32,420 nt of DNA from a virus. Lineage: Duplodnaviria; Heunggongvirae; Uroviricota; Caudoviricetes. The stretch lies in the IMG/VR virus record IMGVR_UViG_3300048573_000453, positions 1 through 32,420 of that record; one strand, given 5' to 3'. How positions within the stretch are numbered: the stretch's first letter is position 1; every line of letters begins with the position of its first letter. Below the pieces are notes generated by a model that was not told the origin of the DNA, made no database searches, and saw only the letters and a program-made list of their open reading frames with translations. Both the position numbers and the translations under genes were made by a program. Positions 1,656-20,004 of this stretch are shown here, piece after piece.

Positions 1656-1661
1656 GTAAGA

Positions 1662-1670
1662 ATTATACCA
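1662..1670 (-). promoter_or_regulatory. Extended -10 promoter, probably leaderless transcript
   Basis: TGGTATAAT-N6-ATG(1655); TTGAGA at 1684-1689 (16-nt spacer). Confidence 0.65.
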
Positions 1671-1732
1671 CGACTTTCAGCAATCTCAACCCCAGGGAAC
1701 ATTTTTAAACTCATACAATCCAGACTTCAGTT

Positions 1733-2566
1733 CTAAGCTACGCAGTTACTTAGATAGTATTCGTTATTTTCTTTTTCAATCTTTGAGACAGTTTTATAAA
1801 GGTCCCCAAAAAAATGAATTTTAACACTGGCGTTCTTAGAAAGGTTTTCAAAAAGCATATTTGGCTTTCCATTCAAAACCCCACTCAAGCCAAATTTGGT
1901 TTCTGTGGAAATCAAATTATTAATATACTGAAGAAGCCGGCAATCATCGTCACTAGACCAAGTGGTGTTATAACCCGCATTGGTATTGCTATAAGGCGGA
2001 TCAATATAGACAAATGAATTTTCCGGTATTTGGATTTTTTCATAAGAACCGGAAAAGAATTTAACATTATCTGGAACATACCGTTCTTTGTAAATTCGTA
2101 AGGTTTCTGCTTTAGAAATATTAAAACCCCTTTTACCCCAGGTCTGGTTAAACTTCCCAGTTTTATTGAAGCGCATAAAACCACTATTACATGACCAAAT
2201 TAATGCCAACAATTTGCATGGGGTTGGAGAAGTATTAAAACTGTCTCGCAGCCTATTATAGTTTTCTTGGCTATCTATCGTTGCTGTGGATAGGGCAATC
2301 GACCTATTAATGAACTCTTCATCTAACAAATTTTGATGAATTTGTATCAACATTTCTAGAGAATCATTTGCGATAATTTGTGGATAAATGTTTGACACAT
2401 TCATGTACACGCTTCCGCCACCCGCAAATAAATCCAAAAACGTATCAACGTCTTTTGGAAACAGTGGCAATAATTTATCCAAAAGGTTAAATTTGCTGCC
2501 AATATAATTGATTGGTGATTTAAACATACTTGGCTTAGTGATATAAATCGGCAAATTCACAGACAT
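1733..2566 (-). CDS. dam: N6-adenine DNA methyltransferase (Dam/D12 class)
   Basis: SPINYIGSK N-terminus, motif I DLFAGGGSV, motif IV DPPY; size typical of T4 Dam. Confidence 0.9.
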   Translation of the reverse strand: MSVNLPIYITKPSMFKSPINYIGSKFNLLDKLLPLFPKDVDTFLDLFAGGGSVYMNVSNIYPQIIANDSLEMLIQIHQNLLDEEFINRSIALSTATIDSQENYNRLRDSFNTSPTPCKLLALIWSCNSGFMRFNKTGKFNQTWGKRGFNISKAETLRIYKERYVPDNVKFFSGSYEKIQIPENSFVYIDPPYSNTNAGYNTTWSSDDDCRLLQYINNLISTETKFGLSGVLNGKPNMLFENLSKNASVKIHFFGDLYKTVSKIEKENNEYYLSNCVA

Positions 2567-3039
2567 TTACTGCCGCCTTCCCAATCTGTTACGCATAAAA
2601 AATTCCCAAATGCTGTAAAGACCCTATACATTCCTTTTGTGTCATCATCAGTAAAGAAACATCCCTGGCTTTGGCGGTTATAAAATTTTGATTCTAGTAG
2701 TTGAGCTTCTTCCGTATCCAGGAATTTTAATATTTTGCCATGTTCGCGAGCACATTCAATTTCGCCAGCGACACCCACAGATGAATCCCAACCAGAAAAC
2801 TTTAGAACCCAAACTTCATCGCAGCGTGCGATAATTGTTCTACGTGTCTTACCCCAATCACCCCATGTAGCAGTCACGCTCATGAATTTCAGAATTTGGT
2901 AATCCTGGACCATCGGTGCAATAAAAGTATGTTCTGGAAATTTAGTGTGAAGATCCGCAAGCATCTTTAGAAACTTGGGTGTTAATTGGCCATTTTCAAC
3001 TGTGCCGGCAGTAGGAATAGCGGTGAAAATGAGTGACAT
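2557..3039 (-). CDS. DUF1937-like / nucleoside 2-deoxyribosyltransferase-fold protein
   Basis: ..IIARCDEVWVLKFSGWDSSVGVAGEIECAREHGKILKFL matches this family pattern. Start reassigned to ATG 3039 (MSLIFTAIP) because AGGAG lies 6 nt upstream and two TATAAT promoters lie in the ORF-track extension (to 3198). Confidence 0.65.
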   Translation of the reverse strand: MSLIFTAIPTAGTVENGQLTPKFLKMLADLHTKFPEHTFIAPMVQDYQILKFMSVTATWGDWGKTRRTIIARCDEVWVLKFSGWDSSVGVAGEIECAREHGKILKFLDTEEAQLLESKFYNRQSQGCFFTDDDTKGMYRVFTAFGNFLCVTDWEGGSKCL

Positions 3040-3067
3040 GTGTTCTCCTGTAAAAGTGTTTAAAGAA

Positions 3068-3076
3068 ATTATACCG
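3068..3076 (-). promoter_or_regulatory. Putative early promoter -10
   Basis: CGGTATAAT upstream of the AGGAG RBS and ATG 3039. Confidence 0.55.
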
Positions 3077-3121
3077 CAAGCTTGGCCGTCTGGGTTCACT
3101 AACTTTTGTCCAGCTAGCATA

Positions 3122-3130
3122 ATTATACTA
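3122..3130 (-). promoter_or_regulatory. Second tandem -10 element
   Basis: TAGTATAAT 54 nt upstream of the 3068 element. Confidence 0.45.
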
Positions 3131-3173
3131 TCAACCAATTTGGGGACCCCATGAAACTGCTTTGCAGTTACTC

Positions 3174-3479
3174 GAAAATAAGCAACAATTTCCATCAACT
3201 AAAGAAGAAGTGGAGTGGAAATTAAAGAGGTTAGATGTAAAAAATACACCATCAACAGTGATTTGACAGTTGATGTAGATGGTGTTGTGAATCTTTCCTT
3301 GAAAAAGTTGTCATTCTTTTCCTGTAAAATTTGGGGTAGTTAGTGGAGACTTTGTCTGTTCTCAAAACCGATTGACCACTTTGCGTGGAGCACCCAGGGA
3401 AGTAGGTGGAAGTTTTTATTGCCATCGAAACCTATTGAAATCTCTTCTCGGTGCACCTAGAGAAGTAGGTGGGGATTTT
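3174..3479 (+). pseudogene. Remnant of LRR-array family gene
   Basis: Reads KQQFPSTKEEVE..LKRLDVK/YTINSDLTVDVDGVVNLS../PVKFGVVSGDFVCSQNRLTTLRGAPREVGGSFYCHRNLLKSLLGAPREVGGDF; frameshifts at A6 (3239-3244) and T4 (3317-3320); cut at the 27-bp repeat; no start codon. Confidence 0.85.
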
Positions 3480-3853
3480 GGCTTTAGACGCGGTATTGCG
3501 TTCCCACACATTTCTACAAAGTCATACTTTTCATGCATTGAACTTAATTCTGATTCCCACGCACGCAATATTTGAACCGATTCTCCACTAGTTTCATTCA
3601 TGAAAAAGACGGCCTTTTCGCCCCTATGAATTTCAAATTCCTTTATTTTGTTCTCAATTGATGCCCGCACTGAATTTTCACGTTCCTGTTTGGCTTCGGG
3701 CGCATCCATTTCATACAAGAAATCTAATTTCTTGTCGTATTGTTGCAATCTAATAGCGACTAATTCGTCAACAGTTGCGCCCTGTAGGTAGTCGCCATTA
3801 CAGGGTTCTGCTTCTTCAAGCTGTTCTTTAAAATATATTGCTGGATTTGTCAT
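3416..3853 (-). CDS. Hypothetical protein with C-terminus altered by the insertion
   Basis: 145-aa ORF directly downstream of nadV; last ~19 aa (PPTSLGAPRRD..) are antisense LRR sequence. Confidence 0.7.
   Translation of the reverse strand: MTNPAIYFKEQLEEAEPCNGDYLQGATVDELVAIRLQQYDKKLDFLYEMDAPEAKQERENSVRASIENKIKEFEIHRGEKAVFFMNETSGESVQILRAWESELSSMHEKYDFVEMCGNAIPRLKPKSPPTSLGAPRRDFNRFRWQ
3474..3500 (+). repeat. 27-bp direct repeat, copy 2 (insertion boundary)
   Basis: Identical to 1055-1081. Confidence 0.95.
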
Positions 3854-3864
3854 ATTTTGATGTT

Positions 3865-5184
3865 TTATAATTTCTGCACGTAGAATTTTGCTCGGTTGCT
3901 GATTACCTGCAAAGTAACATCCACAAGGAGTTTCCCGTTCTCATAGAAGGTTACCATTTCAGGAGAATCGAGGCGACCACCTTTTGACTTCTTACCGGGA
4001 TCAGTGATTGGATCTTTTACGGTATCTACCCAGACCCCATTGATCAAAACCGCAGAAGTTTTCTGAGCAAAGGAGTAGGTATCGCGATTTACTTTCTGCA
4101 ACAACCCACCGCCAGATCCATAGATAACACACTCAGGGGCAAAGCCTGCATCGTTTACCTTCTGCGCCAAAATTGCTAGAGTTGTTGAATCAATACCATC
4201 ACCCTGAATAACTGAAACATTGTTCAGGACATGCTTGCCCTTTGAGTTTACCGTAGTTCCAAATGCAGCCGCAAGTTTTCGGAGAATCTCGGGAACAATT
4301 TCCATCATGTCGCCACTGTCTGGACGGCACACCCATTTTGCCCCAGATGCAACGATACGATCTTTGAACTTGGTGCAAAGCAGTTCAACTTCGCGCATGA
4401 TATCGTAGCCATCCATCACCACTGAAACAATTGCGCCCGGCTTTGCATATGCATCAAGAATTCGATTGAAATATGCCTCTTGGTTATCTTTACCATAGGA
4501 ACACTGGAGAGAATGTTCCGTGGCGCAAACTGAGTAACCAGCCATATCACATGAATAATATTTTCGTGCTGCTTCAAGAGCAACCACATCATCAGTACCC
4601 ATGAAATAAACCAAGTGTGAAAGTCCGCCAATCTCAGCAGTTTCTTTTGAAGAAACCCCACGACTCCCAAATGAGTGCAGTGAAAATGGCAACATATCGG
4701 GATTATCTGATGCATGGTTATAGAACCATTCAAGCTGCTTATAGTTCTCTCGATCGCGAGATGCGATAGTTGTCGGATACCAGATGCCGCGTTGCAGCGA
4801 GGTTTCGATATAAGATGCGAGCCAGAACACACGGGAGTCAGTGCACTCAACAGTCACAAATGGGGTACCAGATGCAATCGGCACGCCTTCAGGCAAGCCT
4901 CGGATTTTGATAGGCAGATACCCTGCATGCTCTTCCAAAATATATTCCCAATCTTGGCGATTGAAAGGCACACCGTGTTTGCCGGCAATATCTGCTGCCT
5001 CATCAATGTCCGCTTGTGTAATTGGCACCAGCAAATTCTTCTTAATCCACATTTGCAGACCGAACGGGACAATAGTCTGACCCTTTGCTCGTGCTTCGAT
5101 ATAGGAAAACATCCCAGAAGTTCCTTCTGGGTATAAAGCAAAGTGCGAGAATTTATATGAATCGGTATCTGTAATAATTGACAT
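3865..5184 (-). CDS. nadV: Nicotinamide phosphoribosyltransferase (Nampt)
   Basis: DTDSYKFSH, LHSFGSRG, ATEHS, RPDSGD, IQGDG, GSGGGLLQKVNRDT, KDPITDPGKKSKGG motifs of the NAMPT family. Confidence 0.95.
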   Translation of the reverse strand: MSIITDTDSYKFSHFALYPEGTSGMFSYIEARAKGQTIVPFGLQMWIKKNLLVPITQADIDEAADIAGKHGVPFNRQDWEYILEEHAGYLPIKIRGLPEGVPIASGTPFVTVECTDSRVFWLASYIETSLQRGIWYPTTIASRDRENYKQLEWFYNHASDNPDMLPFSLHSFGSRGVSSKETAEIGGLSHLVYFMGTDDVVALEAARKYYSCDMAGYSVCATEHSLQCSYGKDNQEAYFNRILDAYAKPGAIVSVVMDGYDIMREVELLCTKFKDRIVASGAKWVCRPDSGDMMEIVPEILRKLAAAFGTTVNSKGKHVLNNVSVIQGDGIDSTTLAILAQKVNDAGFAPECVIYGSGGGLLQKVNRDTYSFAQKTSAVLINGVWVDTVKDPITDPGKKSKGGRLDSPEMVTFYENGKLLVDVTLQVISNRAKFYVQKL

Positions 5185-7052: not shown

Positions 7053-7886
7053 ATGAAATTAAAACAGTTGTTTGAATCAGTAACTAAACAAGACGTCGAA
7101 TCTATCCTTAAAAAATACGGAATTGAGAACTACACCATCAATGATGACTTGTCAGTAGATGTAGATGGTGATGTGTTCTTAAATGACCAGAACCTAAGTT
7201 CGATTCCAGTTAATTTTGGTAAGGTAAGCGGGGATTTTATCTGTTCTTCCAACCAATTAAAAACTTTAGAAGGCGCTCCAAGAGAAATCGGGGGGAAATT
7301 TGCCTGCTCTAACAACAAATTAACTTCTTTGCAAGGTGCACCTAGAGAAGTTGGTGGAGATTTTAATTGCTCTTACAACCGATTAACATCTTTACAAGGC
7401 GCACCAAGAGAAGTCGGCGGGCATTTTTATTGCTATCACAACAAATTAACTTCTCTGCAAGGTGCACCTAGAGAAGTCGGCGGGCATTTTTGGTGCTTTG
7501 CTAATCAATTAACATCTTTAGAAGGTGCACCTAGAGAAGTCGGCGGGCATTTTTGCTGCCGCAGCAACGAATTAACCTCTTTGCAAGGAGGTCCTAGAGA
7601 AGTAGGTAATGGTTTTGACTGTTCTCACAACCAATTAACCTCTTTACAAGGTGCTCCTAGAGAAGTAGGTGGTGTTTTTGATTGCTCTGAAAACCGATTA
7701 GCATCCTTACAAGGTGCACCTAGAGAAGTAGGTGAGGATTTTTTCGGCTCAAATAACCAATTAACCTCTTTACAAGGTGCACCTAGGGAAGTAGGCGGAG
7801 ATTTTAGGTGCCGTTGTAACCCAAATTTGACCTCTCTCGACGGAATCGGTAATGTCGCCGGGGAAATTAGAAGCGATCTATCATGA
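7053..7886 (+). CDS. LRR-like repeat protein 1 (10 x 21-aa units)
   Basis: MKLKQLFES leader, YTINDDLSVDVDGDV cap, repeats GGxFxCxxNxLTSLQGAPREV, C-cap LTSLDGIGNVAG. Confidence 0.9.
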   Translation: MKLKQLFESVTKQDVESILKKYGIENYTINDDLSVDVDGDVFLNDQNLSSIPVNFGKVSGDFICSSNQLKTLEGAPREIGGKFACSNNKLTSLQGAPREVGGDFNCSYNRLTSLQGAPREVGGHFYCYHNKLTSLQGAPREVGGHFWCFANQLTSLEGAPREVGGHFCCRSNELTSLQGGPREVGNGFDCSHNQLTSLQGAPREVGGVFDCSENRLASLQGAPREVGEDFFGSNNQLTSLQGAPREVGGDFRCRCNPNLTSLDGIGNVAGEIRSDLS

Positions 7887-8656
7887 AATTAAAACAATTA
7901 TTTGAATCAGTAACTTCTAAACAAGATGTGGAAACTATCTTAAAGAAGTATAAAATAACGAACTATACAATTAACGACGACTTGTCAGTTGACGTAGATG
8001 GTGATGTGTTCTTAAATGACCAGAACCTGAGTTCAATTCCTGTCAATTTCGGGAAGGTAAGCGGGGATTTTAATTGTTCTTACAGTCAATTAACTTCTTT
8101 AAAAGGGGTCCCTAGAGAAGTTGATGGTAATTTTAATTGTTATAGCAACCAATTAACTTCTTTGCAAGGTGCACCTAGAGAAGTCAGCGGGAGTTTTTAT
8201 TGCGGTAGCAATCATTTGTCCTCTTTGCAAGGTGCACCTAGAGAAGTTGGTGGGGATTTTTGGTGCTATAGCAGCCAATTAACCTCTTTGCAAGGAGGTC
8301 CTAAAGAAGTAGGTGGGGATTATGACTGCCATGACAACCAATTAACCTCTTTAAAAGGTGCACCTAGAGAAGTAGGTGAGAATTTTGATTGCTCTGAAAA
8401 CAAATTGACAACTTTAGAAGGTGCACCAAAAGAAGTCGGCGTGCATTTTTATTGCTATAACAACCAATTAACTTCCTTAAAAGGTGCACCTAGGGAAGTA
8501 GGCGGAGATTTTAGGTGCTCTACCAACAAATTAACTTCCCTACAGGGTGCTCCTAGAGAAGTCGGTGGAAATTTTTACTGCCGCAACAATGCGAATTTGA
8601 CCTCACTTGACGGGGTCGGCAATGTTGTCGGGTTCACTCTGAGCGATATATCATGA
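7883..8656 (+). CDS. LRR-like repeat protein 2 (9 units)
   Basis: Same architecture; ATGA overlap with previous gene. Confidence 0.9.
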   Translation: MKLKQLFESVTSKQDVETILKKYKITNYTINDDLSVDVDGDVFLNDQNLSSIPVNFGKVSGDFNCSYSQLTSLKGVPREVDGNFNCYSNQLTSLQGAPREVSGSFYCGSNHLSSLQGAPREVGGDFWCYSSQLTSLQGGPKEVGGDYDCHDNQLTSLKGAPREVGENFDCSENKLTTLEGAPKEVGVHFYCYNNQLTSLKGAPREVGGDFRCSTNKLTSLQGAPREVGGNFYCRNNANLTSLDGVGNVVGFTLSDIS

Positions 8657-9426
8657 AATTAAAACAGCTATTTGAATCAGTAACTAAACAAGAAGTAGAA
8701 TCCATCCTTAAAAAATACGGGATTAAGAGCTATGTCATTAATGACGACTTGTCAGTAGATGTTGATGGAGATGTGGATCTAAGTAATGAGAAGCTAAGTT
8801 CGATTCCCGTGAATTTCGGGAAAGTTAGTGGAAATTTTCGGTGCTTTGGTAACCAATTAACCTCCTTACAAGGTGCACCTAAAGAAGTCGGTGGCAGTTT
8901 TGATTGCTCTGACAACAAATTGACAACTTTAGAAGGTGCACCAAGAGAAGTCGGTGAAAATTTTTACTGCTATCACAATAAATTAACTTTTCTGCAAGGC
9001 GCTCCTGGGGAAGTTGGTGGAAATTTTTATTGCTTTCGCAACAAATTAACCTCTTTACAAGGTGCACCTAGAGAAGTTGGTAGGGTTTTTGATTGCTCTG
9101 AAAACCAATTAACTTCATTGCAAGGTGCACCGAGAGGAGCAGGTGAGGATTTTTACTGCCATTTGAACCAATTAACCTCTTTACGGGGTTCTCCTAGAGA
9201 AGTGGGTGGGGATTTTTACTGCAATGATAACCCAAATCTGATTTCCTTACAGGGTTCTCCTAGAGAAGTTGGCGGGAGTTTTTATTGCCATAATAGCCAA
9301 TTAACCTCTTTGCAAGGAGGTCCTAGAGAAGTAGGTAAGAATTTTAATTGTATTGATAACCCAAATTTGACCTCACTTGACGGAATCGGCAATGTTGCTG
9401 GGCATATTTTTAGCGACCTATCATGA
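8653..9426 (+). CDS. LRR-like repeat protein 3 (9 units, one internal cap-like unit)
   Basis: Same architecture; internal NDNPNLISL unit is 1 aa longer. Confidence 0.9.
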   Translation: MKLKQLFESVTKQEVESILKKYGIKSYVINDDLSVDVDGDVDLSNEKLSSIPVNFGKVSGNFRCFGNQLTSLQGAPKEVGGSFDCSDNKLTTLEGAPREVGENFYCYHNKLTFLQGAPGEVGGNFYCFRNKLTSLQGAPREVGRVFDCSENQLTSLQGAPRGAGEDFYCHLNQLTSLRGSPREVGGDFYCNDNPNLISLQGSPREVGGSFYCHNSQLTSLQGGPREVGKNFNCIDNPNLTSLDGIGNVAGHIFSDLS

Positions 9427-10256
9427 AATTAAAACAGCTATTTGAATCAACTTCTAAACAAGAAGTGGAATCTATCCTTAAAAAATACGGGATTGACAAC
9501 TACGTAATTAACGACGACTTGTCAATAGATGTCGATGGTGATGTGGATTTAAGTTATAGTGGGTTAAGTTCAATCCCTGTCAATTTTGGGAAAGTCGGTG
9601 GCTATTTTGATTGCTTTGATAACCAATTAACATCCCTACAAGGTGCACCTAGAGAAGTTGGTGGGGATTTTGCTTGTTATAACAACAGATTGACAACTTT
9701 AGAAGGTGCGCCTAGGGAAGTCAACGGGGATTTTGACTGCTCTTACAACCAATTAACCTCTTTGCGAGGCGGGCCTAGAGAAGTCAACGGGCGTTTTTGG
9801 TGCTATAGCAACCAATTGTCCTCTTTACAAGGCGCTCCAAGAGAAGTAGGTGGGGATTTTGATTGCTTTGACAATCAATTGTCATCCCTACAAGGTGCAC
9901 CTAGAGAAGTTGGTGGGGATTTTAATTGCTCTGATAACCAATTAACATCCTTACAGGGCGCACCTAGAGAAGTTGGTGGAGATTTTGATTGTAATCGCAA
10001 CAAATTAGTCTCCTTACAAGGTGCTCCGAGAGAAGTTGGCGGGTATTTTAGTTGCGCCTACAACCAATTAACTTCTTTGCAAGGTGCTCCTAGAGAAGTT
10101 GGCGGGTATTTTAACTGCTTTGCCAATCAATTGACCTCCTTACAAGGTGCTCCGAGAGAAGTTGGTGGGAACTTTGTATGCTCTAATAACTCAAATTTGG
10201 CTTCTCTTGACGGAATCGGCAATGTTGCCGGCAGAATTGAAAGCAACCTATCATGA
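9423..10256 (+). CDS. LRR-like repeat protein 4 (10 units)
   Basis: Same architecture; ATGA overlap. Confidence 0.9.
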   Translation: MKLKQLFESTSKQEVESILKKYGIDNYVINDDLSIDVDGDVDLSYSGLSSIPVNFGKVGGYFDCFDNQLTSLQGAPREVGGDFACYNNRLTTLEGAPREVNGDFDCSYNQLTSLRGGPREVNGRFWCYSNQLSSLQGAPREVGGDFDCFDNQLSSLQGAPREVGGDFNCSDNQLTSLQGAPREVGGDFDCNRNKLVSLQGAPREVGGYFSCAYNQLTSLQGAPREVGGYFNCFANQLTSLQGAPREVGGNFVCSNNSNLASLDGIGNVAGRIESNLS

Positions 10257-10960
10257 AATTAAAACAATTATTTGAATCAACTTCTAAACAAGAAGTAAAA
10301 ACAATCTTAAAGAAGTATAAAATAACGAACTATACAATTAACGATGACTTGTTAGTCGATGTCGATGGGAATGTGTTCTTAAATGACAAGAACCTGAGTT
10401 CGATTCCAGTTAATTTTGGGAAGGTAAGCGGCGATTTTAATTGCTCTTTGAACCAATTAACTTCTTTAAAAGGGGTTCCTAGAGAAGTTGATGGCAATTT
10501 TAATTGCGCTTACAGCCAATTAACTTCCCTACAAGGCGCGCCTAAAGAAGTTGGTGGAGATTTTATTTGCTCTCATAACCAATTAACTTCTTTACAAGGT
10601 TCACCTAGGGAAGTAGGTGGAAATTTTTATTGCTCTCATAACCAATTAACATCCTTACAAGGCGCACCTAGAGAAGTCGGTGGAAATTTTTATTGCTATC
10701 GCAACAAATTAACCTCTTTGCAAGGTGCATCTAGGGAAGTGGGTGGGAGTTTTGATTGCTCTGAAAACCAATTAACATCCTTACAAGGTGCACCGAGAGA
10801 AGTAGGCGGGGCTTTTAATTGCTCTGGCAACCAATTAACCTCTTTAGAAGGTGCACCTAGAGAAGTAGGTGGGGATTTTTATTGCCGTTTTAACCCAAAA
10901 TTGACTTCTCTTGACGGAATCGGCAATGTTGCTGGGCACATTTTTAGCGATATATCATGA
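10253..10960 (+). CDS. LRR-like repeat protein 5 (8 units)
   Basis: Same architecture; 235 aa = 277 minus 2 units. Confidence 0.9.
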   Translation: MKLKQLFESTSKQEVKTILKKYKITNYTINDDLLVDVDGNVFLNDKNLSSIPVNFGKVSGDFNCSLNQLTSLKGVPREVDGNFNCAYSQLTSLQGAPKEVGGDFICSHNQLTSLQGSPREVGGNFYCSHNQLTSLQGAPREVGGNFYCYRNKLTSLQGASREVGGSFDCSENQLTSLQGAPREVGGAFNCSGNQLTSLEGAPREVGGDFYCRFNPKLTSLDGIGNVAGHIFSDIS

Positions 10961-11792
10961 AATTAAAACAATTATTTGAATCAACTTCTAAACAAGAAGT
11001 AGAATCCATTTTAAAGAAATATAAAATAACAAACTATACAATTAACGATGACTTGTCTGTAGATGTGGATGGAGATGTGGATCTAAGTCATAAGATGTTA
11101 AGTTCAATTCCTGTCAATTTCGGGAAAGTTAGCGGGGGGTTTTGATTGCTATAACAACCAATTAACTTCTTTAAAAGGTGCACCGAGAGAAGTCGGCGGG
11201 AATTTTTATTGTTCTGAAAACAAATTAGCCTCTTTACAAGGGCACCTAGGGAAGTAGGTGGGGATTTTTATTGCAATAACAACCAATTAACCTCTTTAAA
11301 AGGTGCGCCTAGAGAAGTTATTAAAAGTTTTGGATGCGCTCACAACAGATTAACAACTTTAGAAGGTTGCCCTAAGGAAGTTAATGGACATTTTTTTGAT
11401 TGCTCTTATAACAAATTAACTTCTTTAAAAGGAGCGCCTAACGAAGCTTTTGGAAATTTTGATTGCAAAGATAACCAATTAACTTCCTTACAAGGTGCAC
11501 CTAGGGAAGTAGGCGGGTATTTTGATTGTAAAGATAACCAATTAACTTCTTTAAAAGGTGCACCTAGGGAAGTAGGCGGGTATTTTAAATGTCATAACAA
11601 CCAATTAACCTCTTTACAAGGAGCTCCTAGGGAAGTTGGTGGGCATTTTTTTTGCACTTACAACCAATTAACTTCTTTACAAGGTGCACCTAGAGAAGTC
11701 GGCGGGAATTTTATTGCTGTAACAATCCGATGCTGAAAATGCTTGACGGAATCGGCAATGTTGCCGGGGAAATTGAAAGCGACCTATCGTGA
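10957..11792 (+). pseudogene. LRR-like repeat protein 6 (10 units), three frameshifts
   Basis: Extra G in G6 at 11134-11139 gives TGA 11143-11145; -1 at CAAGGGCACCT (~11237-11247); missing T in AATTTTATTGC (~11707-11717); C-cap ..GEIESDLS* ends 11792. Confidence 0.9.
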
Positions 11793-12553
11793 AATTAAAA
11801 CAGTTATTCGAATCAGTGTCTAAACAGGATGTAGAATCCATCCTAAAGAAATACGGGATTAAAAATTACGCAATTAACGATGACTTGTCAGTCGATGTTG
11901 ATGGGGATGTGGATTTGCGTCATAGGCAATTAGAAGAAATCCCAGTCAATTTCAGCAAAGTCAGCGGGGATTTTTATTGCCAGTTTAGCAAATTAACTTC
12001 TTTGCAAGGTGCACCTAGAAAAGTCGGAGGGGATTTTATCTGCTCTTCCAACCAATTAAAAACTTTAGAAGGTGCACCTAGAGAAGTGGGCGGGGATTTT
12101 ATCTGCTCTTCCAACAAATTGGCCTCTCTAAAAGGCGCTCCTAAAGAAGTCGATGGAGATTTTTCATGCGCTGATAACCAATTAACTTCTTTACAAGGTG
12201 CTCCTAGAGAAGTCAACGGGCGTTTTTGGTGCTATAGCAACAAATTGACCTCTTTGCAAGAAGGTCCTAGAGAAGTAGGTGGGGAGTTTAACTGCTCTGC
12301 CAACAAATTGACCTCTTTGCAAGGAGGTCCTAGAGAAGTAGGCGGAGACTTTGAGTGCTTTGCAAATCTATTAGTATCTTTACAGGGGGCACCAAGAGCA
12401 GTTGGCGGACATTTCGTGTGCGCCGATAATCCACATTTGATTTCCTTGCAAGGCGCGCCTAGAGAAGTCGGTGGGGACTTTGTCTGCTTTGATACCCCAA
12501 ATTTGACTTCTCTTGACGGAATCGGCAATGTTTCCGGAAGAATTAAGCGTTAG
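11789..12553 (+). CDS. LRR-like repeat protein 7 (9 units)
   Basis: GTG start overlapping the previous TGA; C-terminus 3 aa shorter (GRIKR*). Confidence 0.9.
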   Translation: MKLKQLFESVSKQDVESILKKYGIKNYAINDDLSVDVDGDVDLRHRQLEEIPVNFSKVSGDFYCQFSKLTSLQGAPRKVGGDFICSSNQLKTLEGAPREVGGDFICSSNKLASLKGAPKEVDGDFSCADNQLTSLQGAPREVNGRFWCYSNKLTSLQEGPREVGGEFNCSANKLTSLQGGPREVGGDFECFANLLVSLQGAPRAVGGHFVCADNPHLISLQGAPREVGGDFVCFDTPNLTSLDGIGNVSGRIKR

Positions 12554-12581
12554 ATAAAAAGCAAGCGGGCCTAAAAGCTTA

Positions 12582-13565
12582 TCACGAACGAGTCAAAAAT
12601 GCAGGCATTGGTGATACGCCAGTCATAACTGAAATAATATGCAAATGGTCGTCATACAATTCTAAGGAATTCAGAACCGTAGTCAGAGGAAACCATTCGC
12701 ACTTTGCTGCATCATCTGCTCCATTAGCACGAGGTAGACTTCCATCTGGATTCGGGCTCACTCGAATGTATACGGCAAGTGTATTCCGTGGAATTCCAAA
12801 TGAGCGAGCGGGCGAATCAAATATTTGTGTTTTTACAATGCTTCCGCGAAGAATCTTCTCGGGCACTCGAACATTGGTTTCCTCTTTAAGTTCGCGAATG
12901 GCGCAATCAAGGAATGTCTCATTGCCATTTTTAAATCCACCAGGAAGTGCCCATTGACCTGCCCCAGGCGCCCGTGCTCGTTGGATCAATAGAACATGGC
13001 CCTGACACTCAAGCACGGTATCTCCGCAGTTGAAATTCAGGGTTTCTGGGTATGGATATGAAGCAAAGGTCTTGGTTTCTTTTTGATAGTAATCCCAATC
13101 CTGCTTGACCGATATAGGCATTGCTGGGTCATTTGATACAAACATTTCGTTGCGGATTTGAGTCGCATTGATATCAATTTCGGCTGTGATATCAGAAAAT
13201 TTCCAATCAGGAAACCATGACAAGTAGAGATTTCCATCTTTGTAGTGACCAAACAAAATTGGCTTTTCATCTTCTACAAAATGTTCTACTGTGGCCCGAA
13301 CATCTGTGATCCACTGGCTATCGCTATAAGGGTAGTCATTGAGCGGAACGATCTCAACGTTGGTGATACCGTGAGAATGCAGAATCATTGCGATGTATGC
13401 TTTTCGCTCTATGTATGACCAGGGGTTTTTGATGCTTCTACATTGATTTGCAGAGCCAACAAGAAGAATAAGCGTTTCTACTTGTGATGCAGCAACTGTG
13501 ATTGCATGGATATGACCATCATGCAGTGGCTGGAAACGACCGATTAGGAAACCGATTTTCGACAT
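12582..13565 (-). CDS. nadM: Bifunctional NMN adenylyltransferase / ADP-ribose pyrophosphatase (NadM-Nudix; KVP40 NatV-like)
   Basis: IGRFQPLHDGH (HxGH), VGSAN..KNPWS, ATQIR, Nudix box ALPGGFKNGNETFLDCAIRELKEET, GADDA. Confidence 0.95.
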   Translation of the reverse strand: MSKIGFLIGRFQPLHDGHIHAITVAASQVETLILLVGSANQCRSIKNPWSYIERKAYIAMILHSHGITNVEIVPLNDYPYSDSQWITDVRATVEHFVEDEKPILFGHYKDGNLYLSWFPDWKFSDITAEIDINATQIRNEMFVSNDPAMPISVKQDWDYYQKETKTFASYPYPETLNFNCGDTVLECQGHVLLIQRARAPGAGQWALPGGFKNGNETFLDCAIRELKEETNVRVPEKILRGSIVKTQIFDSPARSFGIPRNTLAVYIRVSPNPDGSLPRANGADDAAKCEWFPLTTVLNSLELYDDHLHIISVMTGVSPMPAFLTRS

Positions 13566-13600
13566 TTTTAAGCTCCTTTAGAATGTCTTTGTTATTTAAT

Positions 13601-13975
13601 TTATTTTTTCAACGATTTGAAAAAGTTTGCTGGTGCTGCTTTGAGCATTGCTTTGAAAACTGCTCTCGCTGGAAGTTCATATTGTTCCTCCGAAGGCCAA
13701 CCTGCAACTGTAGGATTTTCTGATGTCCGGCCACACCGAAGGGTCAATTGACTGTCAAGTGCTTCTTCGCCAATCATCACCATCTCAATAGATGGCTCAG
13801 GGACAACAAGGGCCTGTTCTGAACCAGTAAAGTTCATTTCACTGACATAGAAGCACTTGCGTTCGCCGTCTTGATACTCAATGCAAATACCATCTTCATC
13901 TTTCAAGATGTCAGTTGCATGTTCACATGGGAGAAAATCTTTACCTACACCAATAATTTTAGCAACAGTTTTCAT
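13601..13975 (-). CDS. Hypothetical protein
   Basis: 124-aa ORF downstream of the promoter at 14004, upstream of nadM. Confidence 0.65.
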   Translation of the reverse strand: MKTVAKIIGVGKDFLPCEHATDILKDEDGICIEYQDGERKCFYVSEMNFTGSEQALVVPEPSIEMVMIGEEALDSQLTLRCGRTSENPTVAGWPSEEQYELPARAVFKAMLKAAPANFFKSLKK

Positions 13976-14003
13976 GATTTTTCTTTCAGTGGCATTTTGA
14001 TTG

Positions 14004-14012
14004 ATTATACCA
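14004..14012 (-). promoter_or_regulatory. Extended -10 promoter for the 13975-nadM unit
   Basis: TGGTATAAT; TTCACT at 17-nt spacing; short uORF MPLKEKS* overlaps ATG 13975. Confidence 0.6.
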
Positions 14013-14092
14013 TCAAAATAGCCTCAAGTGAATTGAAGCATGAAGTTTTAGCTTTCTTTAGTAGAAAGAACACGTGCGGGTTGCCCCCAGTT

Positions 14093-15052
14093 TTACGATA
14101 GGTCGCCTTCAATTCGACCAGCTACATTGCCTATTCCGCCAAGTGAGGCCAAATTTGGGTTATCAAGGCAAATAAAATCTCCGCCTACTTCCTTAGGAGC
14201 GCCCTGCAAAGAGGTTAATTCGTTGCTGCGGCAGAAAAAATGCCCACCCACTTCTCTAGGCGCGCCTTCTAGGGATGTTAATTGGTTGTAAGAGCAATTG
14301 AAGCTCCCACCAACTTCCCTAGGCGCACCTTCTAAAGATGTTAATTGGTTTTCAGAGCAGTAAAACTCAAAATAAACTTTTCTAGGAGAACCTTTTAGCG
14401 AAGTTAATTTATTTTTACCACAACTAAAAGTCCCACCGACGTCTCTAGGCGCACCTTCTAGGGATGCCAATTTATTACTAAAGCAATAAAAATCCCCACC
14501 TACTTCCCTAGGTGCTCCTTGTAAAGAGGTTAATTTGTTTTCAGAACAATAAAAATTTCCACCGACTTCTCTAGGTGCACCTTTTAAAAAAGTTAATTGG
14601 TTTTGAGAACAATTAAAAGCCCCAAATACTTCCCTAGGCGCACCTTCTAGGGATGCCAATTTATTACTAAAGCAATAAAAATTCCCACCGACATCTCTAG
14701 GTGCACCTCCTAGAGATGTTAATTGGTTGAAAGAGCAATTAAAATCCCCGCCTACTTCTCTAGGTGCACCTTGTAGGGATGTTAATTGGTTGCCAGAGCA
14801 ATTAAAAGCCCCGCCTACTTCCCTAGGCACGCCTTTTAAAAAAGTTAATTTATTAAAAGCGCACTTAAAGTCTCCACTGACCTTCCCAAAATTGACAGGA
14901 ATTGAACTCAGGTTCTCGTCATTTAAGACCACATCCCCATCAACATCAACCGACAGGTCATCATTGATAACGTAGTTCTCTATCTTATATTTCTTTAAGA
15001 TGGACTCTACACCTTGTTTAGAAGTTGATTCAAATAAATGTTTTAATTTCAT
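14093..15052 (-). CDS. LRR-like repeat protein 8 (12 units)
   Basis: MKLKHLFES leader; 319 aa = 277 plus 2 units. Confidence 0.9.
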   Translation of the reverse strand: MKLKHLFESTSKQGVESILKKYKIENYVINDDLSVDVDGDVVLNDENLSSIPVNFGKVSGDFKCAFNKLTFLKGVPREVGGAFNCSGNQLTSLQGAPREVGGDFNCSFNQLTSLGGAPRDVGGNFYCFSNKLASLEGAPREVFGAFNCSQNQLTFLKGAPREVGGNFYCSENKLTSLQGAPREVGGDFYCFSNKLASLEGAPRDVGGTFSCGKNKLTSLKGSPRKVYFEFYCSENQLTSLEGAPREVGGSFNCSYNQLTSLEGAPREVGGHFFCRSNELTSLQGAPKEVGGDFICLDNPNLASLGGIGNVAGRIEGDLS

Positions 15053-15819
15053 GATAGATCGCTTCTAATTCGTCCGGTTATATTGCCGATTCCGTCAAGG
15101 GATTGTAAATTTGGGTTTTTAGCGCAATCAAAATGCCCGCCAACTTCTCTAGGAGCACCTTCTAAAGATGTTAATTGGTTGTAAGAGCAGTAAAAACCCC
15201 CACCGACTTCTCTAGGAGCACCTTCTAAAGATGTTAATTGGTTGTCGGTACAATAAAAATTTCCATCGACTTCCCTAGGTGCGCCTTGTAAAGAAGTTAA
15301 TTGGTTTTGAGAACAATTAAAATTCCCGCCAACTTCTCTCGGCCCGCCCTTCAAAGAAGTCAATTTGTTGTTATAACAATTAAAACTACCGCCGACTTCT
15401 CTAGGTGCACCTTGCAAAGAAGTTAATTTATTGTCAGAACAATAAAAATTCCCGCCGACTTCTCTAGGTGCACCTTGTAAAGAGACCAATTGGTTACGAG
15501 AGCAATCAAAACGCCCGCTAATTTCCCTAGGCGCACCTTGTAAAGAAGCAAATTTATTAAAAGAGCAATTAAAATTACCGCCAACTTCCCCAGGCGCACC
15601 TTGTAAAGATGTTAATTTATTGTCAGAACACTTAAAGTCTCCACTGACTTTCCCAAAATTAATAGGAATTGAACTCAGGTTCTCGTCATTTAAATTCACA
15701 TCTCCATCGACATCTACAGACAAGTCATCATTGATAACGTAGTTCTCGATCTTATATTTCTTTAAGATAGATTCTACATCTTCTTTAGAAGTAGATTCGA
15801 ATAATTGCCTTAATTTCAT
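15049..15819 (-). CDS. LRR-like repeat protein 9 (9 units)
   Basis: Start reassigned to ATG 15819 (MKLRQLFES), 1 nt after the upstream stop. Confidence 0.9.
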   Translation of the reverse strand: MKLRQLFESTSKEDVESILKKYKIENYVINDDLSVDVDGDVNLNDENLSSIPINFGKVSGDFKCSDNKLTSLQGAPGEVGGNFNCSFNKFASLQGAPREISGRFDCSRNQLVSLQGAPREVGGNFYCSDNKLTSLQGAPREVGGSFNCYNNKLTSLKGGPREVGGNFNCSQNQLTSLQGAPREVDGNFYCTDNQLTSLEGAPREVGGGFYCSYNQLTSLEGAPREVGGHFDCAKNPNLQSLDGIGNITGRIRSDLS

Positions 15820-15820
15820 T

Positions 15821-17662
15821 TTACTGACCGCGCAAAGATCTATCAATTATGGGTTTTTTATTATCTGTTGATGGCCATGAATAAATGTACTCGCCTGCAT
15901 GATCTTTAACAATTAGGAAGGTATAGTTTGCAAAAGTATAAACCTTCATATCTGCTTTATATCCAGGAATACGTTCTTGGAATTCCATTGTTGCGTCAGT
16001 GACTTTAGTTCCAAACTTGACCAAAAACGATGCAACTGAATCGATTTCTTTTTTGGAGTTGGGGCCTCCGCCAATATGAGCAACGACCTGAATGTCTTCA
16101 ATTCGGGTCGTAGTAAAAGGTGAAAACACTTGGCGACCAATCGCGCGGATGCCCTGACTCATATACCCCGGGAGATTGCGAACCATATGCCATTTGGGAT
16201 CTTCTTTGCCAGCAGCTTTCAATGCAGTGTTAATGACCCGTGGCAAATCAGCTGCGGTGGGAATCATGACATCATAGCTAGCATCAATTATGTCTTCGAG
16301 CCCTGATAGATCCATGCCCATAAACAAGAGCAACGATTCCATATCCATGCGAATATTTTTAGTTGCATTTCCTGTGTCAGCAGCCGAAGCAGTGTTAAAC
16401 TTTATAGACCTTTTTGCATCTCCACCAAAAGGCTTGCTTTTTGCAGCTGGTGCATTTTTACCATCAGTGCTTGAGAATTTAATGTCATCTAGCTTGGCAC
16501 GAAACGTGTCTTTCGGGATTGTACGCTTTGGACCAGGGCCATCATCGGCTTCCGCCATAAATTTTAAAAATTTGGTTCGATAAGATTCTTTAACGGCCGC
16601 AGTTTCTAAGGGTTTGACAGAGTAATCCGAATTCAAATCTTTGCTTGTTAAGCCCATTAATTTGTAGTCACCTGAACCATAGCCACCGCCCTGAAATTTG
16701 AGGTTTTTGCTAACAATGATTGTTCTTAGTACAGAGTGAAACTCGGGCTCAATGGCGCCATTGTGTTTACCTTTTAGTTGAGCTATAGTTTTTAGGTTTT
16801 TTGTCAACTCGAAAGTTGCCCCTGGCAAACCTTCTGGGCCCTGAAGCGACCAAATTACCAAACTTCCATTTGTTACGTCTTTTGCATAAGTTCCTACACA
16901 GTGGGCCATGACTTCGCCCTCAGTTTTAACAAACTCTGCAGACAGAGCCTTTACTAATCGGAAACCAGGCGGCAATGGTTGCTCCATATGAACAATTTCG
17001 AAATCTTCGTCCCGCTTTAGCAATTTAAACTTCTGCTTCGCTATGTCTTTTGATAACTTTGCAGATTTGCGGCTTAGATACGCGTGATACGCCCGTGCAT
17101 TACCAATAGCAACAACTGGTGAAACCTTTGTGAAGTCTTTTAAGAAATACAGGTCGGGTAAGATTTCAACGTTGCGGTCTTCTTGATTTATCGCAACAGC
17201 ATTCAAATAGTCTATTAGCTCATCAGTTACTTTTTGTAAGATGCGCGGCATGCGAATTTTGCGGCCACCGGCAAAAATGTGTGCTGTATCCGGGCTTTTG
17301 CGAATGTATTCTGGAAACATTGCTAAAAAGTTTCCGCGCTCAATATGCGGGAACTCTTCTTCCAGGTCATCAATCACCGCATTAAATTCAGGGTACAACA
17401 TGCTTTTAAATTTTTCTTCACTGGCGTATGCACCACCATGAGAGTCGTACCCGACTGCTTCGTTTTTGATCCAGTTCTTAAAGTTTGAATTAAACCATGT
17501 TCTGACTTTGGCTTGATTAGAACGCGGCTCAACACTCTTCTTCATAAACGTGTTAAAAATTTCGTTAAATGACGCAAAGCGTTCAATTACATCGCCAGAT
17601 GGGTCGGTGAGTTCGATTTCGACGCTACCGCCATTTGCAAAATTGGCTTCGAATAAATGCAT
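15821..17662 (-). CDS. 613-aa protein with PcfJ-like domain; putative head-packaged protein
   Basis: KTEGEVMAHCVGTY..IWSL..ATFEL..IAQLKGKHN is the PcfJ-like pattern; N-terminal MHLFEA; internal KFLKFMAEA; upstream TAAATA. Confidence 0.65.
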   Translation of the reverse strand: MHLFEANFANGGSVEIELTDPSGDVIERFASFNEIFNTFMKKSVEPRSNQAKVRTWFNSNFKNWIKNEAVGYDSHGGAYASEEKFKSMLYPEFNAVIDDLEEEFPHIERGNFLAMFPEYIRKSPDTAHIFAGGRKIRMPRILQKVTDELIDYLNAVAINQEDRNVEILPDLYFLKDFTKVSPVVAIGNARAYHAYLSRKSAKLSKDIAKQKFKLLKRDEDFEIVHMEQPLPPGFRLVKALSAEFVKTEGEVMAHCVGTYAKDVTNGSLVIWSLQGPEGLPGATFELTKNLKTIAQLKGKHNGAIEPEFHSVLRTIIVSKNLKFQGGGYGSGDYKLMGLTSKDLNSDYSVKPLETAAVKESYRTKFLKFMAEADDGPGPKRTIPKDTFRAKLDDIKFSSTDGKNAPAAKSKPFGGDAKRSIKFNTASAADTGNATKNIRMDMESLLLFMGMDLSGLEDIIDASYDVMIPTAADLPRVINTALKAAGKEDPKWHMVRNLPGYMSQGIRAIGRQVFSPFTTTRIEDIQVVAHIGGGPNSKKEIDSVASFLVKFGTKVTDATMEFQERIPGYKADMKVYTFANYTFLIVKDHAGEYIYSWPSTDNKKPIIDRSLRGQ

Positions 17663-19510: not shown

Positions 19511-19981
19511 TTACTTACAGGACATTTTATTGATGTGAATATTACTTGGCTTATTTTTGCCGGCCAAAATAGATTTCTGTGAACGTGGCTTATCATTCAG
19601 ATATATCCAAAAGAACGAAACGCTTGGAAATCTAACCGCAAGATTTATCAAGATCTCTAAGGTATCCCCGTCGCTAGATACAATATGCAACTCTCGCAAC
19701 GATTTGTTGTTGCAACATTCTTGCATTGCCAGCATTGCGATTAACATATCTACTGATTCCTTCCCGATATTGGGGGAAGAAACAACTTCGCAGCCATTCG
19801 ACTTTACCTTTTTAGGTAAAGAGGCACCTTCAGTATTAACCCATACGTATTTGATTTCTGAGGAAATCTTTTGCGCAAGCTTAACAAACGAGGTCATATT
19901 TACCGAGTCACCGTCAAAGAAGACAATGATTCCCGGTTTAAACCCATTGAAAAAGCTGCGAAAGTATTTTTTAAAGTTCAT
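19511..19981 (-). CDS. NYN/PIN-like domain protein
   Basis: IVFFDGDS, GKESVDMLI, LHIVSSDGD acidic motifs in NYN order; AGGAG RBS supports start 19981. Confidence 0.6.
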   Translation of the reverse strand: MNFKKYFRSFFNGFKPGIIVFFDGDSVNMTSFVKLAQKISSEIKYVWVNTEGASLPKKVKSNGCEVVSSPNIGKESVDMLIAMLAMQECCNNKSLRELHIVSSDGDTLEILINLAVRFPSVSFFWIYLNDKPRSQKSILAGKNKPSNIHINKMSCK

Positions 19982-20004
19982 TTTGTCTCCTGCAAAAAGC
20001 AAGC

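Follow-up and report, generated by a model that had tools for sequence, protein, structure and literature searches.

Few protein-binding scaffolds in biology are as adaptable as LRR solenoids; in LRR proteins the concave ligand face is made up of the x positions of the strand, and it is at such positions that lamprey VLRs vary. The SspH/IpaH/YopM effectors recognise their targets through the LRR, which is also the part that differs between members of paralog families. A Cys-containing LRR class, IRREKO, has a unit of 21 residues (LxxLxCxxNxLxxLDLxx...) and has been reported almost exclusively from bacteria (PMC2946307). In phages, LRR domains are present in predicted host-recognition virion fibre proteins of phage Goslar (preprint), and the T-even internal proteins constitute a diverse group of defence proteins with only the capsid-targeting sequence (CTS) in common; those of the T4 type counteract host defence and vary from one related phage to another (PMC3012670). 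The first 10 residues of the CTS suffice for packaging, positions 4 and 7 being important for targeting and positions 8 and 10 for processing (PMC9026906). In amoebal viruses, the number of repeat genes scales with genome size (PMC5753266).

The analysed DNA (the window, i.e., the whole stretch of 32,420 nucleotides) originates from an uncultured large freshwater phage, whose record spans 96 kb and is estimated to be 27% complete. The array consists of eight intact genes encoding small LRR proteins (235–319 aa) and one broken copy (Table 1). The original prediction placed nine genes here, and ORFs were found at all of these positions, the ninth being a pseudogene (psi6) with three frameshifts: around positions 11134–11140 (a G run), 11240 and 11715. 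In a variant from run X13, a 1-nt deletion at 11134 would remove the first of them. The nine genes do not form one unbroken tandem: the two minus-strand genes are set apart from the plus-strand block by two unrelated genes. All eight intact frames are translationally coupled, with complete caps, and the ORF lengths differ, as anticipated, by whole 21-aa units. The intact genes contain 76 units and psi6 adds 10, in agreement with the 86 counted before. The neighbours of the array are accessory/conflict genes (Nampt, NMNAT-Nudix and ART-PolyVal). ATAAATA motifs are located upstream of both LRR operons and show no genome-wide enrichment.

Table 1. LRR genes, remnants and adjacent genes of the analysed window.
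Feature	Coordinates	Strand	Evidence or location
g1, LRR binder gene, 277 aa, 10 units	7053..7886	+	ORF; Pfam LRR_4 37.1 bits vs cut-off 27
g2, LRR binder gene, 257 aa, 9 units	7883..8656	+	ORF, unit count; ATGA stop/start overlap with g1
g3, LRR binder gene, 257 aa, 9 units including one internal 22-aa unit	8653..9426	+	ORF, unit count
g4, LRR binder gene, 277 aa, 10 units	9423..10256	+	AF2-modelled protein, pLDDT 94.8; fold matches
g5, LRR binder gene, 235 aa, 8 units	10253..10960	+	ORF, unit count, Pfam scan
psi6, frameshifted LRR copy, N-cap and 10 units across three frames	10957..11789	+	
g7, LRR binder gene, 254 aa, 9 units, GTG start overlapping psi6 stop	11789..12553	+	ORF, unit count
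g8, LRR binder gene, 319 aa, 12 units	14093..15052	-	ORF, unit count, Pfam scan
g9, LRR binder gene, 256 aa, 9 units, start abutting PcfJ-like gene stop	15049..15819	-	ORF, unit count, Pfam scan
Decayed LRR gene fragment, N-cap and about 2 units, several stops	3180..3482	+	
PcfJ-like gene, 613 aa, head of minus-strand operon	15821..17662	-	Pfam PcfJ 40.7 bits vs cut-off 25
NatV-like gene, unrelated to LRR genes	12582..13565		Between plus-strand LRR block and g8/g9
ORF unrelated to LRR genes	13601..13975		Between plus-strand LRR block and g8/g9

A 63-bp period was detected in every gene with Tandem Repeats Finder, and the Pfam LRR_4 model scored above its cut-off in four of the five genes scanned. 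The 76 units of the intact genes have the pattern F4-x-C6-x-x-N9-x-L11, the counterpart of LxxLxLxxNxL in the tandem 20–30-residue units of LRR proteins. Conservation and entropy were computed for those 66 units that measure exactly 21 aa: F4, C6, N9, L11, L14, G16, P18 and V21 are conserved at 92–100%, positions 3, 5, 7 and 8 reach 2.85, 2.93, 2.33 and 3.52 bits, respectively (10–14 residue types each), and all remaining positions stay at or below 1.54 bits. The near-invariant scaffold with variable x positions, originally noticed by eye of a model, is confirmed by these values, the variation being confined to positions 3, 5, 7 and 8.

The AlphaFold (AF2) model of the g4 protein is an LRR solenoid with strands every 21 residues (pLDDT 94.8), as had been expected. 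It matches many LRR structures with a Foldseek probability of 1.00, the best PDB matches being the LRR domains of YopM, SspH1/2 and IpaH, plus InlJ; for the SspH/IpaH/YopM group, which ranks first, the E values are 7e-5 to 4e-4, with TM-scores of only 0.3–0.6. In phmmer searches the phage Cys, Asn and Leu are in register with those of InlJ (E 4.4e-13), and SspH2 is matched with E 2.4e-12, while NCBIfam returned local matches to SspH2 and InlJ only. Because of the in-register InlJ/SspH2 alignment and the strand periodicity of the model, positions 3, 5, 7 and 8 are assigned to the x sites of the LxCxxN strand and loop, on the concave side; this register predicts that they are surface-exposed and gathered on one face, as proposed originally. 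The natural reading of the array is a repertoire of differently tuned putative binders. No hydrophobic N-terminus, signal peptide or membrane segment was recognized in the LRR protein sequences, which stop 8 residues after the C-cap unit and have nothing past the C-cap.

The paralogs are old, with synonymous sites near saturation and purifying selection maintaining the scaffold and caps. Between paralogs the N-cap has a pS of 0.63 and a pN/pS of 0.18; the units average 73.6% DNA identity, within-gene pairs are no more alike than between-gene pairs, and only three blocks of at least 90 nt reach 84% identity. Since the scaffold and N-cap are conserved despite near-saturated synonymous sites, the copies must have been maintained over a long time. 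At the variable sites pN is 0.44–0.64, a value indistinguishable from neutral under synonymous saturation, and for this reason positive selection is undemonstrable there.

Related phages give a divided picture. Compared with a sister phage, the array has very different numbers of genes and units, but within one related ortholog group all 20 variable positions are unchanged, though non-LRR pS reaches 0.27–0.41; specificity is retained there rather than turned over. A tandem paralog pair of a related phage shows specialisation, with a pN/pS of 1.26 at variable sites versus 0.30 in the scaffold, and it is the orthologs of that gene that keep all 20 variable residues. One ortholog pair has nine nonsynonymous and no synonymous changes at variable sites, clustered like exchanged cassettes. 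Differences between strains within one metagenome fall together in the variable portion of individual units, whereas the contigs of runs X1 and X4 listed for both flanks and parts of the array are identical to the window (zero differences). Reverse transcriptase is the marker of DGRs, and no RVT_1 match was obtained across the 96-kb record (estimated as 27% complete), although control genomes did match; on this ground the genes were not classed as DGR targets, though the rest of the genome may still encode a reverse transcriptase. A somatic system of the lamprey VLR type was rejected as well, all eight genes being complete with caps and the units old and diverged. The terms "hypervariable", "diversifying library" and "antibody-like" of the original prediction are therefore too strong for ancient paralogs without reverse transcriptase in 96 kb and with ortholog residues kept, and a new diversification mechanism is not revealed by the finding.

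The array is an inherited multigene family, drawn from a very large phage family and growing and shrinking by gene gain and loss. In the sister phage L061, a single LRR gene (110 aa, two units) occupies the place corresponding to the nine genes found here. Searches recovered more than 23,000 sequence clusters of this family at 50% identity, mostly viral and nearly all labelled "hypothetical"; among its closest Atlas clusters, too, hardly any are non-viral. This ranks the subtype with the more abundant of the uncharacterised families that large phages encode; it is often arrayed in tandem, and array size shifts between sister phages. The size and spread of the family had been overlooked in the original prediction.

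We consider it somewhat probable that this old LRR family supplies intracellular binders, most likely a set acting in phage-host conflict. Its members are small soluble proteins of a putatively binder-only, cap-LRR-cap type with a common rigid solenoid, in which 21-residue units stack a buried Phe/Cys/Asn/Leu ladder between conserved N- and C-caps, and each paralog has its own set of side chains at positions 3, 5, 7 and 8 of the predicted concave face. Distinct concave side chains imply that each paralog most likely binds a different protein target, and the missing signal peptides and membrane segments place these targets probably within the infected cell. As to where and when the LRR proteins act, we infer this from the missing export signals and the neighbouring genes only. 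Candidate targets are host proteins, plausibly defence or regulatory ones, or proteins of rival elements. Should these targets prove to be defence or regulatory proteins of the host, nature would have supplied in each paralog an inhibitor or probe ready for use, and such arrays would record the host factors important to large phages.

The common caps and leader suggest a shared handling step or partner, for which the PcfJ-like protein encoded directly upstream is the best candidate. An LRR gene directly follows the PcfJ-like gene both here and in L061, and in more distant relatives it is located about 2.6 kb downstream. Moreover, 3 of 88 LRR homologs match Pfam PcfJ (best E 3.2e-10), and five of the proteins recovered with the LRR search align in their N-terminal part with the PcfJ protein of the window; four of these five contain repeat units (by motif). 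The locus thus belongs to a PcfJ-associated LRR module (a grouping proposed here, not a curated family), recognized by fusion or adjacency of the two components. The fused PcfJ-LRR proteins resemble long LRR proteins on gut Alphaproteobacteria MAG contigs, and because of this likeness they may be of non-phage origin. PcfJ has no known activity, and its model gave no PDB fold match. With a PcfJ partner, the LRR paralogs would serve as exchangeable subunits for recognising targets; alternatively, they may act alone, sequestering their targets.

A refinement of this intracellular reading, possible though unlikely, is that the LRR proteins are capsid-packaged, injected effectors, with their leader MKLKQLFE serving as a T4-like CTS. 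In this scenario the prohead would be loaded with the LRR proteins and possibly also with the PcfJ-like one, a T4-type prohead protease would cut the leader after Glu, and the proteins would enter the cell together with the DNA and be active from time zero, like T4 IPI* against a restriction enzyme. A CTS was taken to be a shared leader of about ten amino acids that ends in Glu and has a hydrophobic residue at the second position before this Glu. T4 IPII and IPIII begin with MKTYQEFIAE, with which MKLKQLFE shares M1, K2, Q5 and F7; the phage leader itself ends in L-F-E, but the motif is short and its Glu is at position 8, not 10. The leader is conserved although it is modelled with low confidence (mean pLDDT 55 for residues 1–10), it occurs in 26 of 255 homologs compared with 0.5 in shuffled N-termini, and in one relative about 165 residues lie between leader and N-cap, suggesting a separable module; still, it could simply belong to the N-cap. 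The PcfJ orthologs retain an N-terminal LFE with E5 invariant. The nearest LRR homolog, which is 66% identical and has this leader too, shares its contig with a capsid gene of the T4 Gp23 type (E 2.8e-94), and a second LRR-bearing contig carries Gp23 and Peptidase_S77, whereas the 96-kb fragment (27% complete by estimate), searched for Gp23 and Peptidase_S77, contains neither a head nor a protease gene. Also against the idea, the ATAAATA motifs upstream of both operons are not enriched genome-wide. More doubtful still is the fuller form, in which a capsid-loaded panel of at least eight binders, each with its own specificity, is injected, recognises different host defence or regulatory proteins at the very onset of infection and possibly hands them to the PcfJ-like protein; if true, the large unnamed phage LRR family would represent a widespread type of modular effector that is injected and recognises targets. 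The PcfJ-like and T4-like leader links provide two concrete, testable ideas on the deployment of LRR proteins.

It is improbable that the paralogs are virion-surface adhesins or host-range factors, exposed on the tail or fibres and binding different surface receptors. The predicted Goslar fibre proteins with LRR domains set a precedent, InlJ, the closest solved sequence relative, is a surface adhesin, and paralog sets are typical for receptor-binding proteins, but the proteins described here are cap-LRR-cap only, with no fibre, baseplate or attachment domain recognised, their neighbours are genes of nucleotide/NAD metabolism and accessory genes, and PHROG searches, run with selected ORFs from the window and from beyond it, assigned a structural function to none of them. 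A selfish or neutral repeat expansion without specific function would account for the pseudogene copy, the remnant and the copy number varying between sister phages, but is highly improbable given that scaffold and caps are under strong purifying selection while synonymous divergence is saturated, and given eight intact, translationally coupled frames and retention of the family across thousands of phage lineages. Least credible, and already largely refuted, is an actively diversifying antibody- or VLR-like system making binders at a high rate: the VLR-like location of the variation (a comparison from general knowledge), unit cassettes recurring between genes with up to 94% DNA identity, the strain differences within single units and the cassette-like patches of one ortholog pair speak for it, but they are opposed by the age of paralogs and units, the 96 kb without reverse transcriptase, the unchanged X1 and X4 contigs, the ortholog residues conserved elsewhere and the completeness of all genes, none of which is an incomplete "germline" gene with donor cassettes.

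Among known systems, InlJ (PDB 3bz5) and its IRREKO class share with the phage proteins the 21-residue unit and the Cys at the second core strand position (LxCxxNxL). InlJ has a signal peptide, an internalin cap, an Ig-like inter-repeat region and an LPXTG anchor, all missing from the phage proteins, and the nested LDL motif of IRREKO is replaced by a second half-unit LTSLxGAPxEV with Gly16 and Pro18. Assignment to the internalins (InlJ type) was rejected, as the N-terminus is hydrophilic and NCBIfam internalin_J scores 43–62 bits against a cut-off of 1700. The "Bacterial" LRR class of SspH1/SspH2, IpaH and YopM (LxxLxVxxNxLxxLPxLPxx) resembles the phage proteins in its short units of 20–22 residues of the NQLTSLP..P type and extended convex side; the phage unit is one residue longer, with a Cys ladder, and the proteins are phage-encoded in tandem, end after the C-cap and have neither a NEL E3-ligase domain nor a secretion signal. 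A NEL E3 ligase of the IpaH/SspH type was likewise rejected, the NCBIfam SspH2 match covering the LRR part only (307–381 of 788) with 56 bits against a cut-off of 1243.

T4 IPI, IPII and IPIII are likewise small diverse proteins with a common short leader (MK..Q.F, ending in Glu), but they are unrelated basic proteins, while the mature phage parts are homologous LRR solenoids, the leader Glu is at position 8, unlike in T4, and packaging and cleavage are putative. Lamprey VLRs and plant NLR/RLP clusters share the concave-position variation, and the tandem arrays of plants also change through gene gain and loss and unit exchange; the phage array differs from VLRs in having no somatic assembly, donor cassettes or disulfide-bonded LRRNT/LRRCT caps, and from NLR/RLP proteins in having no NB-ARC or kinase signalling domain. 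The LRR, FNIP/FGxxFN and ankyrin expansions of giant eukaryotic viruses and the ankyrin host-range families of poxviruses likewise combine a large viral genome with numerous solenoid binders that are paralogs of one another, and BFVD fold matches include marseillevirus, mimivirid and entomopoxvirus LRR proteins; compared with the giant virus expansions, the phage array is distinguished by its bacterial host, another LRR subtype, a tightly coupled tandem operon and the PcfJ-like link.

The window array is a tandem family of LRR binder genes, shaped by gene gain and loss and plastic in copy number. The window forms the first 32.4 kb of a 96.4-kb IMG/VR contig with a CheckV completeness of 27%, which implies a genome of about 350 kb; the contig was found again in freshwater metagenomes, in 24 runs at least, no RNA run was among those listed, and near-identical DNA was not found in the cultured-phage collection. 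The eight intact genes (g1, g2, g3, g4, g5, g7, g8 and g9) encode proteins of 277, 257, 257, 277, 235, 254, 319 and 256 aa, with 10, 9, 9, 10, 8, 9, 12 and 9 units, respectively. The original prediction was of nine genes with 86 units, and this total stands if the 10 units of psi6 are counted in; the ninth gene does not, psi6 being a broken copy. A further, decayed LRR remnant (region 1055-3500) adjoins a DNA methyltransferase gene and a nucleoside 2-deoxyribosyltransferase-like gene.

Features of the LRR array and its surroundings (window positions)
Feature	Position	Strand	Remark
DNA methyltransferase	1733-2566		
Nucleoside 2-deoxyribosyltransferase-like gene	2557-3198		
LRR gene fragment	3180-3482	+	decayed
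Nampt (NadV)	3865-5184	-	
g1-g5, five LRR genes	7053-10960	+	ATGA stop/start overlaps
APREVGG hairpin, examples	7717-7734, 10854-10871, 11243-11260		
psi6, frameshifted LRR copy	10957-11789	+	N-cap and 10 units over three reading frames
g7, LRR gene	11789-12553	+	sixth intact plus-strand LRR gene; GTG start
NatV (NMNAT-Nudix)	12582-13565	-	unrelated to LRR genes
ORF	13601-13975	-	unrelated to LRR genes
g8, LRR gene	14093-15052	-	
g9, LRR gene	15049-15819	-	
PcfJ-like gene	15821-17662	-	directly upstream of the minus-strand LRR pair g9/g8
NYN-domain protein	19511-20002	-	weak match; ordinary auxiliary gene
dCMP deaminase	24854-25375	-	ordinary large-phage auxiliary gene
ART-PolyVal ADP-ribosyltransferase	26075-26851	+	stand-alone; Pfam E 2.8e-24
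Rubrerythrin/ferritin-like protein	27324-27863	-	ordinary auxiliary gene

The contig of a sister phage (L061) is collinear with the window, the encoded proteins sharing 82% (Nampt), 80% (NatV), 73% (393-aa ORF), 70% (PcfJ) and 86% (204-aa ORF) identity. Its gene order is PcfJ, a 110-aa two-unit LRR gene, NatV, a 388-aa ORF and Nampt, and LRR units beyond the 110-aa gene are absent from it. In the window, by comparison, PcfJ is followed by two long LRR genes, and a block of six genes and the pseudogene lies inverted between NatV and the 393-aa ORF. Nampt and NatV form a NAD salvage/reconstitution pair, separated by one gene in the sister phage and by the inverted LRR block as well in the window. 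The number of genes and units is thus highly plastic between sister phages.

The repeat unit (GGxFxCxxNxLTSLQGAPREV, 21 aa) combines an almost invariant scaffold with variable residues, and per-position entropy, computed from the 66 units that are exactly 21 residues long, showed the pattern originally described to be accurate. Conservation is 92-100% at F4, C6, N9, L11, L14, G16, P18 and V21, whereas positions 3, 5, 7 and 8 each accommodate 10-14 residue types (2.3-3.5 bits), and none of the remaining positions exceeds 1.54 bits. An AlphaFold2 model of g4 (24 aligned sequences; mean pLDDT 94.8, pTM 0.89) has a two-helix N-terminal cap and, with a period of 21 residues, short strands at E20-V21 and F4-x5; its confidence is low in the leader and the C-terminal end only. 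The top-ranked Foldseek matches in the PDB were YopM, SspH1, IpaH7.8, IpaH3, SspH2, SDS22 and InlJ, and phmmer against PDB sequences retrieved InlJ (E 4.4e-13) and SspH2 (E 2.4e-12), so that the predicted LRR solenoid is supported by model, fold and sequence searches. The phmmer alignments are in register, and place the phage Cys on the InlJ "cysteine ladder" and NQLTSL on NQLTSLP of SspH2. In this register, the variable positions coincide with the x positions of the concave strand and of the loop after it, from which we infer that they probably share a single exposed face. The conserved half of the phage unit is similar to the Cys-containing IRREKO class and its second half to the "Bacterial" LRR class, as these classes are defined in PMC2946307. 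Pfam gave only a weak LRR_4 match, and NCBIfam only local, far sub-threshold matches to SspH2 and InlJ. Where it encodes APREVGG, the DNA of every LRR unit carries an inverted repeat of 6 bp (CACCTA...TAGGTG) with a T run behind it, and this hairpin inside the unit accounts for an excess of spurious terminator-like matches. Matches to sigma-70-type promoters were at chance level, and the ATAAATA motif showed no genome-wide enrichment.

The original prediction saw in the array an antibody-like, diversifying system. Unit-to-unit DNA identity averages 73.6% (maximum 94%), units are no more similar within a gene than between genes, nor at equal ordinal position, and only three blocks of at least 90 nt reach at least 84% identity. 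Pairwise means for the N-cap are pS 0.63 and pN 0.116 (ratio 0.18), and in scaffold codons pN is close to zero at a pS of 0.5-1.0. This divergence and these ratios indicate that the copies are old and have been kept by selection; to judge from the sequences, they are neither a recent burst nor homogenised. At the variable positions pN is 0.44-0.64, a value in which positive and neutral evolution are inseparable because synonymous sites are saturated; for the same reason per-site pN/pS over all units is uninformative, codon bias further distorting single columns. A few cassettes recur across genes and ordinal positions, e.g., GGAFNCSGNQLTSL in unit 7 of g5 and unit 2 of g8 (94% DNA identity), which points to past shuffling of units. 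A DGR was rejected for the 96-kb contig, on which no reverse transcriptase is present.

Three comparisons among relatives bear on the same question: (i) in an ortholog group of animal-gut phages, none of 20 variable positions had changed, with non-LRR pS as high as 0.27-0.41; (ii) in a neighbouring tandem paralog of that group, pN/pS was 1.26 at variable sites vs. 0.30 in the scaffold; and (iii) in a second ortholog pair, the variable positions had undergone nine nonsynonymous and no synonymous changes, clustered in two or three units and resembling exchanged cassettes. These results agree with specialisation after duplication and an occasional exchange of units, and not with continual hypervariation. 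Hence, with old copies under selection, no reverse transcriptase in 96 kb and variable residues conserved in an ortholog group, an antibody-like diversifying system is not supported; what survives of the idea of diversification is the copy-number plasticity between sister phages.

The population data consist of assembled contigs (Logan), which are fragmented inside the array. Those listed from two metagenome runs (X1 and X4) for the flanks and parts of the array show zero differences from the window. In a more distant strain (run X13), mostly nonsynonymous differences cluster at positions 1, 3, 5 and 7 in unit 4 of g4 and at positions 3 and 5 in unit 1 of g2; of the differences in its flanking genes, 9 are synonymous and 3 nonsynonymous. 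The first frameshift of psi6 would disappear with a 1-nt deletion variant seen in the G run at 11134. Since paralog cross-mapping is possible, the X13 differences and this variant are suggestive only, and clustered X1 differences in the g8 C-cap, which resemble such cross-mapping, were not counted as a rearrangement. Contig joints included a 63-bp (one-unit) skip in g3 at 8832/8896 and the opposite-strand joins 7174/14910 (between LRR N-caps) and 6589/17700 (across the whole block). The sides of many joints between LRR genes are short, and these joints might thus be assembly-graph artefacts; the three joints named and the G-run length variant may be either such artefacts or real rearrangements.

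The parent family of the array is vast, unnamed and mostly phage-borne. At least 3,646 homologs were obtained at E<=1e-5 (8,000 candidates scored), and among representatives at 50% identity there were 23,739 matches at E<=1e-3 and 2,836 at E<=1e-30; all source names among the matches listed read "hypothetical protein". Viral sequences make up 98-100% of the nearest Atlas clusters, and contigs attributed to Chlorobiaceae, gut Alphaproteobacteria, Aliarcobacter and Methylophilus carry homologs too. Among cultured phages, Vibrio phage VB_VaC_SRILMA (host Vibrio alginolyticus) encodes one homolog, at 56% identity. Tandem arrays were found on other phage contigs too, one of them with 13 adjacent paralogs that have a different C-terminal domain. 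In many homologs the same LRR and C-cap are joined to unrelated N- or C-terminal domains, which argues for the LRR array as a portable recognition module. No paper describing a phage LRR multigene family of this kind was found in the literature, and the family is unmentioned in a jumbo-phage review, huge-phage preprints and the polyvalent-protein paper (PMC5512222).

With hydrophilic N-termini and without membrane segments, the LRR proteins are probably soluble and intracellular. Their array is surrounded by accessory genes, i.e., Nampt and NMNAT-Nudix (NAD salvage), ART-PolyVal and PcfJ-like; the ART-PolyVal domain family was described from the "polyvalent" proteins that phages and conjugative elements inject (PMC5512222). 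In some homologs, the LRR module and PcfJ-like domains are fused in one protein. Pfam detected PcfJ in 3 of 88 LRR homologs (best E 3.2e-10), and five proteins from the LRR search, four of them with repeat units by motif, are matched in their N-terminal part by the window PcfJ protein. An LRR gene immediately follows PcfJ in both the window and the sister phage. The N-domains of fused homologs had no significant BLASTP match to the window PcfJ and ART proteins, and Pfam returned nothing for them when cut out; another fused N-domain may be ART-like, to judge from a hint in Atlas (score 0.86). The AlphaFold2 model of the PcfJ-like protein is moderate (pLDDT 70.8) and had no fold match in the PDB at E<=0.001; its core, at about residues 200-330, is confident, residues 349-436 form a disordered linker, and the C-terminal domain is rich in beta structure. 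PcfJ orthologs keep an N-terminal LFE, and a His-Cys pair (H254/C255) is invariant. In two loci of more distant relatives (L060 and L062), the PcfJ ortholog is followed by two paralogous ~218-aa proteins with hydrophobic N-termini and then by Nudix and HNH genes; an LRR gene lies ~2.6 kb downstream, with a Gp38-like adhesin gene and a tail sheath gene nearby.

All nine LRR copies start with MKLKQLFES, and similar leaders were found in 26 of 255 homologs vs. 0.5 in shuffled N-termini; in one relative, ~165 residues separate leader and N-cap. Elsewhere on the 96-kb record, genes at 62077-62682 (-) and 67978-68385 (-) start with the LRR-type leaders MKLSTLFE and MKTQELFE, and for one of them the sole match is a PHROG of unknown function. 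The 96-kb fragment lacks capsid and protease families, and PHROG searches with other large ORFs gave neither structural genes nor a lineage clue. Contigs of LRR-bearing relatives encode a T4-type Gp23, one of them together with a prohead protease. In T4, the internal proteins, a diverse anti-restriction set, are loaded into the head by a capsid-targeting sequence (PMC3012670; PMC9026906). The phage LRR leader is alike to this sequence (MKTYQEFIAE in the T4 record), in a motif that is short and differs in spacing. This likeness and the T4-type head genes of relatives make it a real, if rather unlikely, possibility that the LRR proteins are injected with the phage DNA by means of a T4-like leader.
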